In this document: positions 3,001-61,474 of the stretch, in pieces
How the letters are laid out: every line of letters starts with the position of its first letter
Numbering within the stretch: position 1 is the stretch's first letter
Origin: Candidatus Omnitrophota bacterium
Lineage (GTDB): Bacteria > Omnitrophota > Gorgyraeia > Pluralincolimonadales > Pluralincolimonadaceae
NCBI GenBank assembly: GCA_043798215.1
Contig: JAZDOX010000038.1
Location: forward strand, 5,659 to 69,658
Direction: 5' to 3'
Length of the DNA stretch: 64,000 bases
Notes under the pieces: generated by a model
Told to the model about the DNA's origin: nothing
Seen by the model: the letters and a program-made list of their open reading frames with translations, nothing else
The model's database searches: none
Translations under genes and position numbers: made by a program

Positions 3001-6000
3001 AAAACCATCAAAGTCCCCTGCCACCTTAACTTCGCCAAGGATAGCGGGCAAGACATCTTTATCTTCATCGAAAAGATATCCGAATTTAGAAGCTTTTATG
3101 GCGGCGATCGCCAAATTCATAACCGAATCCGACATAAATGTGTCGAAAGCGATTACCAGGCTGCCGTTTGGAACCAAGCTGTCGTAGACGGCATTGAGCT
3201 CCTTAACCGCGCAATCCATATTATAGAAAAGAGTCGGATCGACTATAACCGCTATGTCTACGGTATTGGGCCTATCGGCAAAGTAAGCGGCGTTTATGTT
3301 CTGTTTGAGGGTGTCAACCATCTCGAAGCTAATATCCTCAAGCCCAAACAAATCCCTGTTTTCTTTTGCCTCCACCAAAAATTCAAGATTAACATCTATT
3401 CCTTTTATCGCAACCGTCTGGCCTGTGGCTTCTTGAAGGCCTCTTTGAAGCGCTAAAGCGTATGAGCAAGAACCGCAATTAACAGCCACAGCGTTAAGTC
3501 CCTCTTTGGCGGAATAATCTATCCTTGCGCTTCTGAGGGCATAATTAATATTCTCGGCAAATTTAGTGTCCTTCGCATATTGGTCTATTAACATTTGGGC
3601 CTGTTCTTTTATATCGCCTGTCTGCGCCAACACGAATTCTGCGTAATAATTTTCATATCCGGGGCTGCTTAAGAGATTGTATTTGGTCAGGCCTGCGGCA
3701 AGGCTGTCATCCAAAATCATTAACTGCTTTGCAACCTCATCTTTTAAGGCGCGGTTATCGGTTATCCAGTTGGGCAGATAAGAGACAACGATTGGGATTG
3801 CTTCATTGCCGCTCGCAATGCCGCCGGCGGCGTCATTTTGCCAGATGTGATAATAATACTGCTCATCAAAAGACAAATCGGGCTGCGCAATAAATCTTTT
3901 CTCGACTATACCTTCCGAGGCAATTAAAAGATGTGAACGATTTAATTCCGCGGCTCTGTCGTAATAACTAATGTTAGGCGTTAGATCTTTTAATCTCTCT
4001 TTAATCTCGCCAAGATTCGTTGAGGATAGGAAATTGCTGTTGTAAAATAGTGCGGCTTCTTTTACTTTTATACCTAATCTGTCTATTTCAGTATCGCAGA
4101 TATGCTTTATAGAATTGTGACCGTCCATATCATTGACATGGATCAGGACGTAAACATTCTTCCCATCTCTTTCACCCCTAATGATAACCCCGGAGCAGCT
4201 GGATAACTCTAAGATAACCGCAGCCTCGCCTTCCGGTATCTCGGCAACCATGAAATGATCAGTAGGAACATTTATCCTTCCACATATGGGCTCTTCGAAA
4301 CTGATCGTACGTTCAGTAAAGCGCGGGGTTGGCATATTGCTTTCCGATATCTCATAAGTTGTATATTCACTCTTTGTAACCTCTAATAAACCCGACAAAG
4401 TCCAACGTTCATAACTTGTTACCGCCTTTCTTAATTGCGCCTTAAAATCGGTGGTTGTTGCCGGCGAGACTGCGGCCAGCATATCTGAAACATCTACAGT
4501 TATATTTACTATATTATAATAAACGGTTTCGGTCGCGAAATCATCAACCGCCGCGCAAACACACCATCGGTATCCTAATTCGCTCTTATCCAGCGCTCCT
4601 TCTATAGAGAAATCTCCAAATTGCACTAACACTATATCATCGGGCGAATATTTCTCGTAAATCTCATTTAAGCTCTCGCCGTAATAATAACCGGTTACAA
4701 CATCCTTGCCGTCGATGGTCTTTATTACCCCGTAGGCGAAAGACAAAGGTATCTCCAACATAATTTCATTGGCGGCGCAAAGAGCGATATTGAACAAGTC
4801 CGTCTCGGCCTTCTTTGTTGTATATAACTGGCCATTCTGGTGGGTTATTACGCTGGATAAGCTGTCTGCGCTTAAGGGGTTGACGCCTTTAGGTTCTTCA
4901 AAAGACTTAAATGAGTCGCTGGAAGTTTCTCCGATGGCTATTGATTCATCCGACACATACGACCTTACTATCTCAACAGCGGTTGCGGTGGTAGAAACTA
5001 TGCTGTAGGATTCTACGCCGGCAGAAACCAAAGCGGATTCGCCCTTGGCCAACGTAATAGTCGGCTTGCCTGTTGCCCTTAATTCAACGGTTCCGCTTAA
5101 GACAGTGATTATCTGGAACTTCTCGTTCGTCTGCTGGTTAGAGAGAGTTGACATACCGGCCATATCTATCTTATCGACCTTAAAGAACTCGCAATCAACC
5201 AAAGTCTTTATCTCCGGCTGCGAAGTAACTTGAGGCGTCCTTATGAAGTCGTCTTTGGTCGTCTTTCTGAAATCAAGGACGTCCATACATTGGCTTATAT
5301 GAAGCTGTCTCTTTGGAAGCCTGTTCCAGTCCCATGCCCTGTAAGTGATACCGCTTGACTGTTGGATTTCGGCTATTCTGCATCCAGAGCCTATGGCGTG
5401 AATAGTAGTGGAAGGAATATAATACATCTCTCCTTTGGTAACCACGAATTTATTTAGATATTTATCGGCTATATCGATATTGCCGGCGTCTAAGTCTTTT
5501 CTAAATTCATCTCTTCTGTCTATTCCAAGCTCAGGATTATACACCTCTTCCTTAAAACCAAGATACAGAACGCTTCCAGGATCGGCGTCCAGAACATACC
5601 AACATTCGGTTTTGCCCAAATCGCCTTCCTTCTTGGCGTATTCATCATCTGGATGGACCTGAACAGAGAGGTTCTCGCTTGCATCCAAGAACTTAACGAG
5701 GATTGGATTCTCGCCATCGGTTATGTCGTTGATATCTTCGCCCATAATATCTTCACCTGCTATCTTTAACAGGGCGGGTATGGATATCGTAACGCCGCTT
5801 GTGGGTAAAACAACCTGGCTTGGGCTGTCCTTATGTCCGGACACTTCCCAGGACTCGCCTATCTTCTTATTGTCATAGCCGGAGAGGCCTTTCAGCGCGG
5901 CTATGAAATCTCCGCCCCAGGGCTTTTCGACCAAGTTATCCGTCTTCGGCTTTATTATCTGGCTCTTTAATGTGTTTATATCGGTAACAGCGTTATTGTA

Positions 6001-54678: not shown

Positions 54679-54685
54679 CAATTAG

Positions 54686-54692
54686 CTCCCCC
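54686..54692 (-). promoter_or_regulatory. Shine-Dalgarno (GGGGGAG) for the giant ORF, 7-nt spacer to ATG
   Basis: Minus-strand sequence reads GGGGGAG-CTAATTG-ATG. An in-frame TAA sits immediately upstream of the ATG. Confidence 0.55.
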
Positions 54693-54891
54693 TATTTTAG
54701 CTTTTTGATATACTGAAAATAAAAGACAAAAAATGCGCCCGCCTTATTTTTAATTAAATAAGTGGGCTAAACCGAGATTAAACGCGCTATCTCCTCTTTT
54801 TTCAATAGTAATTTCTCCTTTAAAAGATAATCATTTACATAATATTAATATAAAATTCACAAAGAATTAACGATTCTTTATTGACTTTTTA

Positions 54892-54920
54892 AGCATACAG
54901 TATAAGCTTATTTATGTCAA
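54892..54920 (-). promoter_or_regulatory. Candidate sigma70-like promoter for the giant ORF (TTGACA, 17-nt spacer, TATGCT)
   Basis: Minus-strand TTGACA at 54920..54915. A 17-nt spacer precedes TATGCT at 54897..54892, which matches TATAAT at 4 of 6 positions and keeps T1, A2 and T6. This would give a roughly 200-nt 5' UTR. Confidence 0.3.
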
Positions 54921-55075
54921 GGGTAATTTTTTGTCTTTTTAAGGTAAAATCTGCTGTGGCGGGATTCGGCCCTGCCTGCCGGCAAGGTAGGGATTATTGT
55001 AATTTGAGAGCGTTGAAAAACCCTCAAAAAGCCGTTGTTCATATGGTAAAACTATGCTCTTGAATGTACTAAATT

Positions 55076-55156
55076 GGGACGCAGATAAACGCAGATTATC
55101 AGGATTTTTTAGACTTATCTGCGTAATCCCTATTTTCTGCGAAAATCTGCGTCCAG
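55076..55156. promoter_or_regulatory. Nested inverted-repeat element built from four ACGCAGAT(A/T)A / T(T/A)ATCTGCGT half-sites. Related ATCTGCG and GGGATT motifs recur at 54953..54975.
   Basis: GGGACGCAGAT (55076-86) pairs with ATCTGCGTCCA (55145-55). ACGCAGATTA (55090-99) pairs with TTATCTGCGT (55115-24). GACGCAGATAA (55079-89) matches TTATCTGCGTA (55115-25). The element lies in the divergent cinA / giant-gene intergenic region. Confidence 0.4.
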
Positions 55157-55254
55157 ACGGCCTTTTGCAATGCTCTCAATTTTTAAATTTATTTTTTTCA
55201 TATAACATATATTATAGGTTTGTCTATTTTTATGTCATTAAAATTGTCCTGTAG

Positions 55255-55274
55255 GGTTCAGGCCTGCCTGAACC
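55255..55274. promoter_or_regulatory. Perfect 8-bp stem / 4-nt loop hairpin (GGTTCAGG-CCTG-CCTGAACC). An imperfect GC-rich dyad follows at 55301..55319.
   Basis: Read directly from the sequence. Its function is unknown. A TATAAT hexamer abuts it at 55275..55280 but lacks a good -35. Confidence 0.3.
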
Positions 55275-55387
55275 TATAATTTAAACCAAATAGACAACGG
55301 GACGGGCAGGCCCGCCCCCTACACGTTTTCCATCAGCGCGCAGTTTTCAAGAATAAAGATTTTCGCCTGGAGCCGCACATTGAAAAT

Positions 55388-55416
55388 TTGACAGTAAGTC
55401 TCTCCTGAACTATAAT
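55388..55416 (+). promoter_or_regulatory. Consensus sigma70 promoter (TTGACA-17 nt-TATAAT) for cinA. The predicted TSS falls at or next to the ATG, so the mRNA would be leaderless.
   Basis: TTGACA at 55388..55393. A 17-nt spacer precedes TATAAT at 55411..55416. The ATG is at 55424, 7 nt after the -10. No Shine-Dalgarno lies between them. Confidence 0.55.
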
Positions 55417-55423
55417 GTTTTAA

Positions 55424-56746
55424 ATGGAAGCTGAAATAATCTCTATAGGAACCGAGATTCTTCTTGGGCAAATATTAAACACAAATCAACAATATCTCTC
55501 TTCGCGGCTTGCCGCGCTTGGAATTGACGTTTACCGCCATTCAACCGTCGGAGATAACCCTGAAAGGCTTATTTCCGCAATCCGGCAGGGCATTGAGCGT
55601 TCGGATATCGTAATTACTACCGGCGGATTGGGGCCTACGGTTGACGATATAACGCTTAAAGCTATTGCTTCCGCCTTCTCCAAAAAATTGATCTTTAATA
55701 AAGATCTCGCCGCGCAAATAAAAGCGCGCTTCGGAAGACAATGCGTTAATATGCCCAAAGAAAATCTGTGTCAGGCTTACGCGCCGGAAGACGCCGCGAT
55801 ATTAAAAAATAACGAGGGAACGGCGCCCGGTTTTATCATCGAGAAAAACGGCAAGATATTCATCGCCCTGCCCGGACCGCCGCGAGAACTCAAGCCGATG
55901 TTTGATAAATATGTCTTGGCATACCTTAAGAAAAAAACACGATCAGGCTGGATAATAAAAACCCGCGCCCTGAACATAACCGGTTTGCCCGAATCGGCCG
56001 TAGATAATAAAGTAGGAGACCTTCTGCGCGGCGCGCCGCCGGTTACAGTCGGAATATTCGCTTCCCCGTCTCTTGTCGAATTAAAGATAACCGCCAAAGC
56101 AAAAACCGAAAAACAGGCCAACGCGCTGATAGATAAGATGGATAAAAAAATTGCCGCGCGTTTAGGAGATTACATATTTGGGCGCGACAACGAGACTCTT
56201 GAAGGCGCCGTCGGGCAATTGTTAAAACGCTCTGGAAAAACACTCGCCGTAGCCGAATCCTTGACCGGCGGCCTAATCTCAAGCAGAATCACGGATGTGG
56301 CGGGAAGCTCGAAATATTTTATGATGGGCGGCGTAGCTTATTCAAATGAGACGAAGATCTCAAAACTTAAAATTCCCACGGGATTAATCAGGAAATACGG
56401 CGCCGTAAGCCGTGAGGCCGCGATTAAAATGGCGAAAAATGTGAGAGAGATCGTAGGAACCGATTACGGATTAAGCGTAACCGGAATCGCCGGACCTGAC
56501 GGCGCGACAAAAACCAAGCCGGTCGGGCTTGTCCATATCGCTGTCTCGACCCAAGAAGAAACAATCTGCCGGAAGTTCAATTTCATAGGCAGTCGAACGG
56601 TCATAAAATTCAACAGTTCTCAGGCCGCTCTCGATTTATTGAGAAAATATCTTACTGCTCAAAATAACAGATGTCATTCCCCGACTTGCAGACTGGGTCA
56701 CAATGTAGTTGCTCGATTTATCGAGCACAACATATCGGCCCAATAA
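55424..56746 (+). CDS. cinA: CinA family competence/damage-inducible protein (MoCF-binding N-domain plus CinA/PncC-like C-domain). The last roughly 30 codons derive from a repeat element.
   Basis: Translated MEAEIISIGTEILLGQILNTNQQYLSSRLAALGIDVYRHSTVGDNPERLISAIRQGIERSDIVITTGGLGPTVDDITLKAIA ... LAVAESLTGGLISSRITDVAGSSKYFMMGGVAYSNETK ... GLSVTGIAGPDGATKTKPVGLVHIAVS. The native-looking end ...ALDLLRKYL is followed by a tail TAQNNRCHSPTCRLGHNVVARFIEHNISAQ encoded by the 110-bp repeat. Confidence 0.85.
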   Translation: MEAEIISIGTEILLGQILNTNQQYLSSRLAALGIDVYRHSTVGDNPERLISAIRQGIERSDIVITTGGLGPTVDDITLKAIASAFSKKLIFNKDLAAQIKARFGRQCVNMPKENLCQAYAPEDAAILKNNEGTAPGFIIEKNGKIFIALPGPPRELKPMFDKYVLAYLKKKTRSGWIIKTRALNITGLPESAVDNKVGDLLRGAPPVTVGIFASPSLVELKITAKAKTEKQANALIDKMDKKIAARLGDYIFGRDNETLEGAVGQLLKRSGKTLAVAESLTGGLISSRITDVAGSSKYFMMGGVAYSNETKISKLKIPTGLIRKYGAVSREAAIKMAKNVREIVGTDYGLSVTGIAGPDGATKTKPVGLVHIAVSTQEETICRKFNFIGSRTVIKFNSSQAALDLLRKYLTAQNNRCHSPTCRLGHNVVARFIEHNISAQ

Positions 56747-56790
56747 ATTGGGCAGCTACAATATGTTGATCTATTTAGTCGAGAAAAAGG
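56681..56790. repeat. Copy 1 of a roughly 110-bp structured repeat element (MITE- or ncRNA-like). It overlaps the 3' end of cinA.
   Basis: About 85% identical to 59078..59187. Shared features are GTCATT(C/G)CCCGACTTG(C/G)AGACTG...CACAATGTAGTTGCTCGATTTATCGAGC (a GCTCGAtttATCGAGC hairpin) ... a G-C-C-C-(A/G)-A-T hairpin ... GCA(G/A)CTACAATAT. Confidence 0.6.
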
Positions 56791-56871
56791 GTTACGACCC
56801 AGTCTGCGAGCCGGACAATGACGATATAAGATTAAATCTCAAATACATAGAAGAAAGTGTTTTTACAAAAA

Positions 56872-58438: not shown

Positions 58439-58508
58439 CTTGGTATGAACCTGTTGCGAAATATCATTTTTTGCAATTTCCCGCCTTTATTATCCTAAAC
58501 ACAACAAT

Positions 58509-58606
58509 GTCATTCTGTGGCTTGACCACAGAATCCAGACATAAAAATAACTTTTAGCGTGACTGGATTCCCGCTAACAGATTGCGGGAATGACGTCTTG
58601 CAACTT
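58509..58606. repeat. REP-like palindromic units: A1 at 58509..58540 and A2 at 58561..58606. The consensus has CTGGATT and AATGAC flanks around a variable stem-loop.
   Basis: A1 is GTCATTCTGTGG-CTTGAC-CACAGAATCCAGAC. A2 is GACTGGATTCCCGC-TAACAGATT-GCGGGAATGACGTCTTGCAACTT. A2 is the reverse complement of 59208..59251. Confidence 0.5.
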
Positions 58607-58655
58607 AAAACAATTGAACTCATACAACTACTCGTGGTTCCGCGATACATTATTT

Positions 58656-59033
58656 TTAGTCTACAAGAAAATTGCTAAGAACGATGGATTTCAACCTTTC
58701 GAAATCAACGGGCTTTGTAACGTAGTCGCAACTTCCCGCGTCGGCGCATCTTCCGGATTCTTCGACATCCCAAATCGCGCTTACAATAACAACGGGAATA
58801 TTGGAATCAATCTCTTTAATCCGCTTGAGAGTCTCAAAGCCGCTCATCCCGGGCATCAATATATCCAGGATCACAAGCCCGGGTTTTTCAATCATAATTC
58901 TATGCAGGGCCTCTTCTCCCGACTGCGCCACTACTAATCTCCAGTTCTCGGCGCTTAATTTAATCGCTAATAACTCCAACTGTTGAACATCGTCGTCAAC
59001 TATTAAAACAGACCTTTTAGATTTTTCGTCCAT
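58656..59033 (-). CDS. Standalone response regulator receiver (REC, CheY-like) protein
   Basis: Translated MDEKSKRSVLIVDDDVQQLELLAIKLSAENWRLVVAQSGEEALHRIMIEKPGLVILDILMPGMSGFETLKRIKE...IPVVIVSA. It has the phospho-acceptor Asp context and lacks an output domain. A strong AAGGAGG Shine-Dalgarno sits 6 nt upstream. Confidence 0.85.
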   Translation of the reverse strand: MDEKSKRSVLIVDDDVQQLELLAIKLSAENWRLVVAQSGEEALHRIMIEKPGLVILDILMPGMSGFETLKRIKEIDSNIPVVIVSAIWDVEESGRCADAGSCDYVTKPVDFERLKSIVLSNFLVD

Positions 59034-59077
59034 TACCGCCCTCCTTGGTATTATCGTAACTCTTCGCCCATAAAATT

Positions 59078-59187
59078 GTCATTGCCCGACTTGGAGACTG
59101 TGCCACAATGTAGTTGCTCGATTTATCGAGCCTGATATGTTAGCCCGATGAATCGGGCAACTACAATATCTTGATGAATTTAGCTGG
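59078..59187. repeat. Copy 2 of the roughly 110-bp structured repeat element
   Basis: See copy 1. The internal hairpin GCCCAAtaaaTTGGGC (copy 1) becomes GCCCGAtgaaTCGGGC (copy 2). This is a compensatory A-T to G-C change that preserves pairing. Confidence 0.6.
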
Positions 59188-59207
59188 TGCAAGCGGTTTC
59201 ATAAGCC

Positions 59208-59305
59208 TCTTTGCTTCAAGTTGCAAGACGTCATTCCCCGATTTATTCGGGGAATCCAGTCATGCTATAAAATGTGATTCCGTGTCTGGATTACCCGCAC
59301 AGGGC
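59208..59305. repeat. REP-like palindromic units: B1 at 59208..59251 (inverted copy of A2) and B2 at 59274..59305
   Basis: B1 is AAGTTGCAAGACGTCATTCCCCGA-TTTAT-TCGGGGAATCCAGTC. B2 is GTCTGGATTACCCGC-ACAGG-GCGGGTAATGAC. The flanks are conserved and the stems covary. Confidence 0.5.
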
Positions 59306-59374
59306 GGGTAATGACTTATGAAACCGCTGGAGAATAACATTTAAAACTACTCGATCGTAACGCTCATTTATTAA

Positions 59375-61474
59375 TCAAACCTTCTTTAACCTTCTGATTT
59401 CCTGCAACAAATTTTCGGCAGAAAGACCTCCTTTCTGCTCGATGTGTTCAACGTTGCCGTTAAGCTTCTCTTTATCTTTAAGGGTTATGCTCTTTGCCGT
59501 AAGCACGATTATCGGAATATCCTTAAGCAAAGGATTACTTTTCATCTCCTCAATCACCTTAAAACCGCTCATCCTCGGCATCATTAAATCAAGAATCATT
59601 AAATCGGGCCTGGACTTAATCGCTAACTCTACGCCTTCTTTGCCGTTAAATGCCTTGATGGTCTTGAATCCCGCCGATCTAAGAGTTACCTCCGTAAGTT
59701 CCACCGCGTAAGGATCATCGTCCACGACAAGAATATTTATCGGCTTTCCATTTCTCGCCCCATCCATCATCCCAAACCTTCCCAAAATCTGAAAAAGTTT
59801 ACTCTTGTCCACGGGCTTAACCAGATAATCAATGGCTCCAAATTTCGAGGCCTCGCCGCTGTCTTCCATGACAGAAACTACTATAACGGGAATATCCTTA
59901 GTCTCGGGCAAATCCTTCAGCTCTTGAAGAACCTGCCAACCGTTCTTCTTGGGCAAATTAATATCCAGCGCAACTATATCCGGCTTTAGTTCCCTGGCCT
60001 TGTTAACCGCTTCCTCGCCGTCAAAAGCCGATAGAACATTATATCCTTCGGATCGAAGCGCTTCTGAAAGAAGCTCATTCTCCTGTGGATTATCTTCGAC
60101 TACTAATATGCTGGGAGTTTTATCTGCCAAAGCCGAAACAGCGCTCTTTTTAGCCGCTTTTTTTATCTCCACTATTGAGATTCCAACTTTCTCGCCAAAA
60201 GCCTTAACGCATCTGTCCAGCGAATAAACAACAGGAAACGTAAATATAAATTTGCTGCCCTTGCCTTCTTCGCTTTCCAACCAAATCTTTCCTCCGTGTA
60301 TCTCGATCAAGGTCTTTACCAGCGATAACCCCAGTCCGGTGCCGGAATATTGCCGCGAATACCCTTCATCAGCCTGCTGAAAAGGCTCAAATATGCGTTC
60401 CCAATCTTCTTTTTTGATACCGATTCCGCTATCAATTACCGAAATCTGAAATTCCTCTTTATCCTTTAAAAAAAGGGTCTCGATTTTAACGCTTCCTTCC
60501 TCAGGAGTAAACTTAATGGCATTGCTTAAAAGATTATACATTACCTGCTTGAACATCTTCTTATCGGCTGTCATCATTGGCGAATCCGCCAAATCTGGAA
60601 CCGTCAAGGATATCTTCTTCTTTAAAGCTAAAACCTTGACAACATCATTAACTTCCTTAATAACCTCGTCCGGGAAAAACTGTTCGGGACTAACCTGAAT
60701 CTTTCCGGCCTCGATACTCGCTAAATCAAGAAGGTCATTTATCAATTGCAAAAGGTGCCTTCCGGAAGTAAGGATATTATTCAAGTATTTTCCCTGAGTC
60801 GCGTTTAAGCCTCCGGATATGCCGTCCAATAAAACCTCGGAAAAACCTATTACGGAATTTAGCGGCGTTCTTAGTTCGTGGCTGACATTGGTTAAGAATT
60901 TAGATTTAGCCTCGCTTGCCCTGACTAACTCCTTATTAAGAATGACTAACTGCCGCGTCTTTGCCTCTACCCTTACCTCCAATTCCTTATTCCATACCTC
61001 AAGTTCCATTTTCGCTTTTTCGAGTTCTTGGTTTCTGGTCTCCAGCTCCTTTAATATCCTGCGATTTTCGTTCTTTAACCTGTATTCTTCCAATAAATTC
61101 TTAACGGTTAATCTCAAATCTTCGTTTTCCCAGGGCTTCTCGATATATTTGCTTAATCCCGCGTTGTTTATGGCATATATGGCCGAATCCAAGCCGGCGT
61201 ATCCTGTCAGCAAAATCTTTACGGTTTCTGGATGTTTCTTATGCACCATCTCCAGAAATTCCGCGCCCTTCATTCCCGGCATTACATGATCGGCAATCAC
61301 CATTTCCAAGTTCATTTGACCCTTTTCGAGTTCGTCTATAATCTGAAGGGCGTCTTCGGCGCTCTCAGCCAATCTTATATCATGGGTCTGACCCGCCAGA
61401 TCTTCCAAATTAAACCTCAACGAAACCAATACTGTCTGCTCATCATCAACGCATAATATTATTCCTTTAGACAC
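59375..61474 (-). CDS. Hybrid sensor histidine kinase / response regulator (N-terminal REC, coiled coil, HisKA, HATPase_c, two C-terminal REC domains)
   Basis: Translated MSKGIILCVDDEQ... (REC) ...FLTNVSHELRTPLNSVIGF (H-box) ... IDSGIGI...GTGLGLSLV (N/G boxes) ... ILVVEDNPQENELL... and ILVVDDDPYAVEL... (two further REC domains). Its start overlaps the upstream kinase stop by 8 nt. Confidence 0.9.
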   Translation of the reverse strand: MSKGIILCVDDEQTVLVSLRFNLEDLAGQTHDIRLAESAEDALQIIDELEKGQMNLEMVIADHVMPGMKGAEFLEMVHKKHPETVKILLTGYAGLDSAIYAINNAGLSKYIEKPWENEDLRLTVKNLLEEYRLKNENRRILKELETRNQELEKAKMELEVWNKELEVRVEAKTRQLVILNKELVRASEAKSKFLTNVSHELRTPLNSVIGFSEVLLDGISGGLNATQGKYLNNILTSGRHLLQLINDLLDLASIEAGKIQVSPEQFFPDEVIKEVNDVVKVLALKKKISLTVPDLADSPMMTADKKMFKQVMYNLLSNAIKFTPEEGSVKIETLFLKDKEEFQISVIDSGIGIKKEDWERIFEPFQQADEGYSRQYSGTGLGLSLVKTLIEIHGGKIWLESEEGKGSKFIFTFPVVYSLDRCVKAFGEKVGISIVEIKKAAKKSAVSALADKTPSILVVEDNPQENELLSEALRSEGYNVLSAFDGEEAVNKARELKPDIVALDINLPKKNGWQVLQELKDLPETKDIPVIVVSVMEDSGEASKFGAIDYLVKPVDKSKLFQILGRFGMMDGARNGKPINILVVDDDPYAVELTEVTLRSAGFKTIKAFNGKEGVELAIKSRPDLMILDLMMPRMSGFKVIEEMKSNPLLKDIPIIVLTAKSITLKDKEKLNGNVEHIEQKGGLSAENLLQEIRRLKKV

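Follow-up and report, generated by a model that had tools for sequence, protein, structure and literature searches.

Head-to-head CGTC-tagged repeats on both sides of a stand-alone response-regulator gene in Omnitrophota: probable insertions into a pre-existing operon

Introduction

When a small gene lies between two inverted repeats, do the repeats act on the gene, or is it simply caught between them? The question is raised by a stand-alone response-regulator gene (REC) of a Candidatus Omnitrophota bacterium, located in a stretch of 64,000 nucleotides (nt) of contig JAZDOX010000038.1 (assembly GCA_043798215.1), which was analysed as a whole and is called the window below. A first-pass annotation described units resembling repetitive extragenic palindromic (REP) sequences around this gene, A1 and A2 on one side, B1 and B2 on the other, and proposed that they might serve inversion or mobilisation, transcription insulation, or RNA stabilisation. 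The answer reached here is that the four units are very probably CGTC-tagged REPs, arranged as two head-to-head heterodimers that were inserted into two spacers of a gene run comprising a hybrid histidine kinase, REC and pgsA. There is no sign that REC is inverted or mobilised by them.

The superfamily of CGTC-tagged REPs was defined by Di Nocera, De Gregorio and Rocco (2013, BMC Genomics 14:522; PMC3733652). According to that work, each repeat starts with a terminal unpaired CGTC, the variants TGTC and CCTC being accepted, followed by a stem of 8-9 bp that nearly always begins with A-T pairs, a loop of 4-5 nt (longer in a few families) and an unpaired CCA tail. These repeats occur chiefly as head-to-head dimers, often heterodimers, with tags outside and spacers of 20-100 bp, mostly between unidirectional or convergent open reading frames (ORFs), in families that range from fewer than 20 units up to thousands (PMC3733652). 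They form the class of REPs reported without associated REP-associated tyrosine transposase (RAYT) or other transposase genes; they were described mainly in Alphaproteobacteria, and Omnitrophota was not among the five phyla named in 2013 (PMC3733652).

Results

A pattern scan with CTGGATT-N10-40-AATGAC gave exactly four matches across the window, at 58509-58538 (minus strand), 58563-58594 (plus), 59230-59259 (minus) and 59286-59315 (plus). The chance level is 0.03 matches in dinucleotide-preserving shuffles, none of 100 of which reached four, so that the palindromic units noticed at first are borne out. A relaxed scan, allowing up to three mismatches and requiring a hairpin, added matches at noise level only. 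The general form of the unit is (C/T/A)GTC-ATT-stem-loop-stem-AAT-CCAG (Table 1), and the label 'REP-like', which was correct, can be sharpened to CGTC-tagged REPs in head-to-head dimers. The tag is CGTC itself in A2 and B1 and the accepted variant TGTC in A1; that of B2, AGTC, keeps GTC but falls outside the listed variants. Stems with perfect complements measure 9, 8, 9 and 9 bp in A1, A2, B1 and B2, respectively, loops are 5 nt long in three of the four units (9 nt in A2), and AAT-CCAG ends all four. Both pairs have their tags outward, with a gap of 24 nt in dimer A and, in dimer B (B1 and B2, tails inward), of 26 nt between CCAG and CTGG.

A covariance model (R1) points in the same direction. 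Built from 23 units of other organisms and none of the window, it retrieved the four units only, on the correct strands, with 23.7-34.8 bits and E-values of 2.3e-4 to 1.6e-7, every other match having an E-value of at least 0.8; there is some circularity in this test, since the window's own flank motif had served to gather the training units. The stems are unlike one another (CTGTGG, CCCGC, CCCCGA, ACCCGC), including the two members of each pair, and each is perfectly self-complementary. When three units of the window were aligned with three from other phyla, 100% of the cells paired and five of the nine stem pairs had changed on both sides, a pairing that no shifted register of the same alignment approached. 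The conserved flanks and covarying stems claimed by the first-pass annotation are found again in this way, and the covariation is supportive only, because the units tested had been chosen for their hairpins.

The two dimers stand in mirror orientation around REC. A repeat finder recovered arms of 28 nt on the A2 and B1 sides (58586-58613 and 59211-59238), 93% complementary and with 597 nt between them, and a second inverted pair of 21 nt (58552-58572 and 59250-59270; 90%). A2 is indeed the reverse complement of B1, and the gene is indeed bracketed by inverted repeats about 600 bp apart, as had been proposed. Dimer A has 80% column identity with the reverse complement of dimer B and 70% with its direct strand, the longest uninterrupted identity of the inverted copies being about 21 nt. 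A2 and B1 have in common an extension of 18 nt, which in each dimer faces REC. A metagenome scan for CTGGATT-N15-21-AATGACGTCTTGC, where the last element stands for the GTCTTGC extension, returned 16 loci, chiefly chance matches with a few unrelated CGTC dimers, none of them with the full extension. Since the extension was not found on CGTC units elsewhere, it appears to be local to the REC locus. Dimer B and its extension are further enclosed by a perfect inverted repeat of 14 nt, a bracket that dimer A does not have. Dimer B may have inserted into a host site that was itself palindromic; some CGTC-1 dimers of H. neapolitanus sit within longer palindromes (PMC3733652).

Both dimers are predicted to fold more stably than their shuffles. 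On the minus strand, which is the transcribed one, the z scores are -4.2 for dimer A and -4.6 for dimer B; on the plus strand they are -6.6 and -4.8. The minus-strand RNA of dimer A (-36 kcal/mol) is predicted to combine an outer GUCAUU/AAUGAC stem, the hairpins of the two units and a central AAUCCAG/CUGGAUU stem.

Table 1. Coordinates of the repeats, genes and large intergenic regions discussed in the text (window numbering)
Feature	Position	Strand	Description	R1 score
Unit A1	58508-58538	+	tag TGTC; 9-bp stem ATTCTGTGG/CCACAGAAT; loop CTTGA; tail CCAG	28.9 bits, E 7.6e-6
Unit A2	58563-58595	- (tag to tail)	tag CGTC; 8-bp stem ATTCCCGC/GCGGGAAT; 9-nt loop AATCTGTTA; tail CCAG	34.5 bits, E 1.9e-7
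Unit B1	59229-59259	+	tag CGTC; 9-bp stem ATTCCCCGA/TCGGGGAAT; loop TTTAT; tail CCAG	34.8 bits, E 1.6e-7
Unit B2	59286-59316	-	variant tag AGTC; 9-bp stem ATTACCCGC/GCGGGTAAT; loop CCTGT; tail CCAG	23.7 bits, E 2.3e-4
Dimer A	58508-58595		head-to-head heterodimer of A1 and A2; tags outward; CCAG-CTGG gap 24 nt; between REC and pgsA	
Extension TCTTGCAACTTAAAACAA	58596-58613		adjoins A2; inverted counterpart at 59211-59228	
Extension, inverted copy TTGCTTCAAGTTGCAAGA	59211-59228		adjoins B1	
14-nt perfect inverted repeat AGCGGTTTCATAAG/CTTATGAAACCGCT	59192-59328 (arms 59192-59205 and 59315-59328)		encloses dimer B and extension	
Element E1, complete copy	56672-56823	+	long hairpin with TGTCATT.../...AATGACG ends, enclosing a GTAG-tagged REP dimer; overlaps the cinA 3' end	
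Element E2	59077-59185	+	terminus TGTCATTGCCCGACTTGGAGACTG; GTAG-tagged head-to-head REP dimer at 59109-59165; right arm missing	
REC, stand-alone response regulator	58656-59033	-	125 residues; PF00072, E 4.4e-26	
Hybrid histidine kinase gene	59375-61474	-	Pfam assignment; spacer to REC 341 nt	
Intergenic region	54682-55423		GTAG-tagged dimer 55250-55323; long hairpin 55077-55154	
Intergenic region	56747-56856		element E1	
Intergenic region	58439-58655		dimer A	
Intergenic region	59034-59374		element E2 and dimer B	

Did the gene come with the repeats, or the repeats to the gene? The closest orthologues of REC are found in two other Omnitrophota loci, L001 (79% identity) and L005 (74%), in each case immediately after the gene of a hybrid histidine kinase, which is 73% (L001) and 61% (L005) identical over its full length to that of the window. 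The order from kinase to REC and the strand are identical in all three loci. The spacer between the two genes is 43 nt in L001 and 1 nt in L005, against 341 nt in the window, and the units are present in neither L001 nor L005. On this comparison of sequences, we read the units as lineage-specific insertions into a pre-existing operon, because the orthologous kinase-REC pairs are tight and free of them. REC would have been in place before the repeats, neither inverted nor imported, because order and strand are kept in loci that have no units. The comparison of synteny with relatives, which the first-pass annotation had recommended, reveals an unchanged order and strand and no visible inversion. 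The gene that comes after REC differs from genome to genome: pgsA-pgpA in the window, a dCache histidine kinase in L001 and rplU-rpmA-obg in L005 (regions compared: 58439-58655 of the window, 10388-10644 of L001 and 3331-3414 of L005). The end of the operon is a recurrent synteny breakpoint, with repeats present or not.

The composition of the window goes far to explain why the units are next to this particular gene. Positions 1-54681, about 85% of the window, form one stop-free frame on the minus strand, which runs off the left end and counts at least 18,226 codons. It is because of this single ORF that there are only four intergenic regions of more than 100 nt, and palindromic repeats are present in all four (Table 1); repeats make up 252 of the 341 nt of the kinase-REC spacer (59077-59328, that is, E2 and the bracketed dimer B). 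With repeats in every sizeable intergenic region, repeats are plainly abundant in this part of the genome, the apparent enrichment near REC is an artefact, and the association of the units with the gene is probably accidental. Two dimers placed among four regions would both flank one and the same gene in about 1 case in 6, and the relative inversion of a near-palindromic dimer is a 1 in 2 event. Bracketing is thus expected by chance, because adjacent intergenic regions hold repeats as well, and mirror orientation is a 50% outcome, because head-to-head dimers are nearly symmetric.

The same dimers are scattered over many phyla. A scan with GTCATT-N15-21-AATCCAG-N18-32-CTGGATT, over one representative genome per species, found at least 120 loci. 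Fifty of the matches listed are from Bradyrhizobium; also among the matches listed are Sphingomonadales, further Alphaproteobacteria, Bacteroidales, Armatimonadota, Nitrospirae, Gemmatimonas, Stahlbacteria, Dehalococcoidales, Kapaibacterium, Campylobacteraceae and Lacunisphaera. Many of the listed loci are complete GTCATT...AATCCAG...CTGGATT...AATGAC elements. At least 17 loci carry hairpin-type units that share these flanks and whose loops recur (CTTGA, GAAG, GAAA); CTTGA, the loop of A1, was seen again in units of at least six other taxa. Other Omnitrophota loci, about 100 kb in total, yielded no unit even when two mismatches were tolerated.

A mobilising enzyme was looked for in several ways. 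Pfam revealed no transposase or recombinase among the genes of the window. An Omnitrophota Y1 transposase, used as a phmmer query against 4,166 ORFs from the surroundings of CGTC units (136 loci), revealed no Y1-like ORF, and all-against-all clustering of these ORFs revealed no recurrent transposase-like family by inspection, without a Pfam check; the recognisable clusters are, again by inspection, of common housekeeping types. The literature searches made for later work on CGTC REPs found only papers citing the 2013 study, and none naming an enzyme or recombinase that mobilises these repeats. These searches agree with the 2013 statement that CGTC REPs have no dedicated transposase. The link to a RAYT suggested by the first-pass annotation finds no footing here, the CGTC class being reported without RAYT (PMC3733652), with none in the window and no Y1-like ORF in the 136 loci. 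A stand-alone Y1 transposase of 160 residues (PF01797, HUH motif HIHLIL) is encoded within 3198-3865 of locus L142, from the Omnitrophica metagenome-assembled genome GCA_028710245.1, and in its near-duplicate L143. Its gene has GGGACACCC/GGGTGTCCC hairpins on both sides, a RAYT-like arrangement with a REP type unlike the units of the window.

REC is the last gene of a conserved cluster (FemAB-like, histidine kinase, hybrid histidine kinase, REC), and its product is 100% identical to an NCBI entry of a Candidatus Omnitrophota bacterium named response regulator. Besides the giant ORF, the genes assigned with Pfam are cinA, ligT, pgpA, pgsA, REC, the hybrid histidine kinase, a histidine kinase and a GNAT/FemAB-like fragment. 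The giant ORF has an ATG at 54678, preceded by GGGGAG; its N-terminal 1000 residues have a weak Pfam match to Peptidase_C39, and the last 1000 residues in the window have no Pfam match. Giant genes have already been described in Omnitrophota (bioRxiv 10.1101/2023.11.21.568195; 10.64898/2026.06.07.730766). No tRNA was found in the window, and Rfam had nothing relevant, with gathering thresholds on the whole window or with permissive E-values on 56.5-59.5 kb.

A second repeat family lives alongside the CGTC units. Its complete copy, E1, has a predicted fold of -62.4 kcal/mol (z score -7.8), and E2 is about 85% identical to the segment 56672-56780 of E1. The inner dimer reads GTAGTT-GCTCGAT-tt-ATCGAGC ... 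GCCCGAT-ga-ATCGGGC-AACTAC, so that this family unites features of both REP superfamilies, a GTAG dimer being lodged inside a hairpin with CGTC-like tagged ends. Positions 56672-56746 of E1 provide roughly the final 25 codons of the cinA ORF together with its stop; of the 440 residues encoded, the Pfam CinA domain reaches as far as residue 410. It appears, therefore, that E1 has taken the place of the original 3' end of cinA. The giant ORF and cinA diverge, and the region that separates them has a GTAG-tagged head-to-head pair, TGTAGGGTTCAGGC-ct-GCCTGAACC ... GGGACGGGCAGGCCCGCCCCCTACA, at 55250-55323. At 55077-55154 there is an imperfect long hairpin, GGACGCAGATAAACGCAGATTATCAGGATT/AATCCCTATTTTCTGCGAAAATCTGCGTCC, with arms of 30 nt that are 77% complementary and internal ACGCAGAT repeats, which looks like a further element of the miniature inverted-repeat transposable type. 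At the end of the L005 contig (7415-7442) there is a perfect palindrome with a GTAG tag, GTAGGGGCGGTTC-gc-GAACCGCCCCTAC, and GTAG-type REPs consequently occur in relatives that have no CGTC units. Weak sigma-70-like matches (9/12) were found on the minus strand at 59082-59053 and 56677-56649, with a -35 hexamer that coincides with the terminal TGTCAT of E2 and of E1 (ATGACA on the minus strand), that of E2 pointing into REC. Over 56.5-59.6 kb, promoter-like matches number 8 (5.4±2.2 in shuffles) and terminator-like matches 7 (3.8±1.9), within about 1.7 standard deviations of the shuffles.

Discussion

The account that we favour is an ordinary one. CGTC units would spread in the form of single-strand hairpins that are non-autonomous and depend on some enzyme acting in trans, and in this lineage such small non-coding repeats would have entered two intergenic spacers of the hybrid kinase, REC and pgsA run. 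Once inserted, they would be transcribed within the operon mRNA, where their stable stem-loops might at most have the influence on decay, processing or read-through that is known from other REPs. That the dimers mirror each other around REC would then be a by-product of two insertions of a near-palindromic element and not a device acting on the gene. RNA stabilisation or insulation, also suggested by the first-pass annotation, is plausible as a generic role of REPs, by analogy with other systems.

Several points weigh against this account. The assignment to the class is drawn from four units within one 64-kb window and not from a genome-wide copy number; A2, with its loop of 9 nt, and B2, with its AGTC tag, are slightly beyond the typical ranges; and the search with R1 has the partial circularity noted above. 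The shared 18-nt extension could mean that a local inverted duplication took place instead of two independent insertions. Finally, the effect on RNA would be one transposed from other REP systems.

Taken alone, the locus matters little: a known class of repeats has been met once more, in a phylum for which it had not been listed. CGTC-tagged REP dimers are now seen in Omnitrophota, and the scan adds Stahlbacteria, Armatimonadota, Nitrospirae, Gemmatimonas and Dehalococcoidales. For the operon, the repeats have put distance between a kinase gene and a response-regulator gene that are otherwise tightly linked, which could uncouple their expression. The wider question is that of an enzyme able to recognise flanks of 6-7 nt that stay the same from phylum to phylum around freely varying stems.

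Three other readings have to be weighed against insertion. An unlikely one is that the units are not mobile elements but target sites for a site-specific or RNA-guided recombinase, in which case they would coincide with synteny breakpoints. The ends of A2 and B1 are like those of dRS3, a Neisseria repeat into which filamentous prophages integrate (PMC1797815) and which is the same as CGTC-1 (PMC3733652), and the gene downstream of REC is a different one in each of the three genomes compared (3/3). However, L001 and L005, neither of which has the units, already differ from one another after REC, the window contains no IS110-type gene or prophage, and the spacing within the dRS3-like ends is 13 and 11 nt versus 8.

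A dedicated cis-regulatory role has a still smaller share of our belief. Here, the units would be RNA structures proper to the two-component operon (attenuators, processing sites or protein-binding hairpins) that set the expression of REC. To be sure, they lie inside a run of genes of the same direction, where they would be transcribed, their predicted folds are stable, and the kinase-REC spacer of 341 nt is filled with repeats, the weak promoter-like match (9/12) at the E2 terminus lying upstream of REC. Yet the orthologous operons do without the units, which have no Rfam match, other phyla have the motif in hundreds of unrelated settings, and neither promoter-like nor terminator-like counts rise above those of shuffles.

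The inversion or mobilisation first proposed, with REC as a cassette flipped or moved by recombination between the inverted dimers, is highly improbable: inverted copies 597 nt apart with a shared gene-proximal extension would suit it, as would the proposal that Neisseria dRS3 arrays promote recombination and exchange of the genes that they flank (PMC1797815), but REC and its cognate hybrid kinase keep the order and strand seen in the two repeat-free orthologous loci, perfect identity does not exceed about 21 nt, the window has no recombinase, invertase or transposase gene, and the arrangement itself is well within chance (a 50% outcome for the inversion, about 1 in 6 for the flanking of one gene). 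The chances are just as slim that the inverted dimers and their extension are working recombination sites for an enzyme recognising the deeply conserved GTCATT/AATCCAG flanks, with REC inverted or exchanged as a cassette. Were this true, inversion would switch REC off within its operon, and the locus would offer a way to the missing enzyme that mobilises CGTC REPs, not identified in 2013.

Comparison with known systems

The probable insertion of CGTC-tagged REPs is best appreciated by setting the locus beside the systems that it resembles. With a site-specific invertible segment it shares the inverted repeats; the window has no recombinase, and the orientation of the gene is that of the orthologous loci. 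In the REPIN-RAYT system, GTAG-tagged REP doublets are moved by a Y1 HUH transposase (Bertels and Rainey, 2011; PMC3116915). There the GTAG tag stands at the 5' end of the REP, and the RAYT gene typically has the same REPs on its flanks. As in REPINs, there are two inverted REPs with a short spacer, intergenic, hairpin-forming and presumably non-autonomous. In contrast with REPINs, the four units carry (C/T/A)GTC, GTAG being found only in E1, E2 and 55250-55323; the stems within a pair are unlike, and therefore only the conserved flanks can pair between its members; and no RAYT is present among the genes of the window.

In Neisseria, dRS3 is a sequence of 20 bp, ATTCCC-N8-GGGAAT, that forms arrays alternating with RS elements (PMC1797815), and it has been classed as CGTC-1 (PMC3733652). 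The likeness is in the ATTCCC...GGGAAT ends of A2 and B1, in the intergenic location and in the ability to flank genes. The differences are an inner spacing of 13 nt in A2 and 11 nt in B1 instead of the 8 nt of dRS3 and NIME, dimers that are isolated and not set in dRS3-RS-dRS3 arrays, and a window in which no prophage or IS110-type recombinase is seen. RPE-4 and RPE-6 of Rickettsia have been equated with CGTC-4 and CGTC-1 (PMC3733652); as members of the same superfamily according to that study, the Rickettsia elements are likened to the present units by description and not by sequence. In this comparison, E1 overlaps the end of a gene, cinA, whereas the four units that flank REC are intergenic.

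It is with the CGTC-tagged REPs as published that the agreement is most complete. The Omnitrophota host, one 9-nt loop, one AGTC tag and the additional 18-nt extension on A2 and B1 set the present units apart. What they have in common with the class is the tag, the stem that begins with A-T pairs, the CCA tail, the arrangement in head-to-head heterodimers, the location between ORFs of the same direction and the lack of an adjacent transposase gene, and the families closest to them in form are those with a 9-bp stem and a 5-nt loop, CGTC-3 and CGTC-4.

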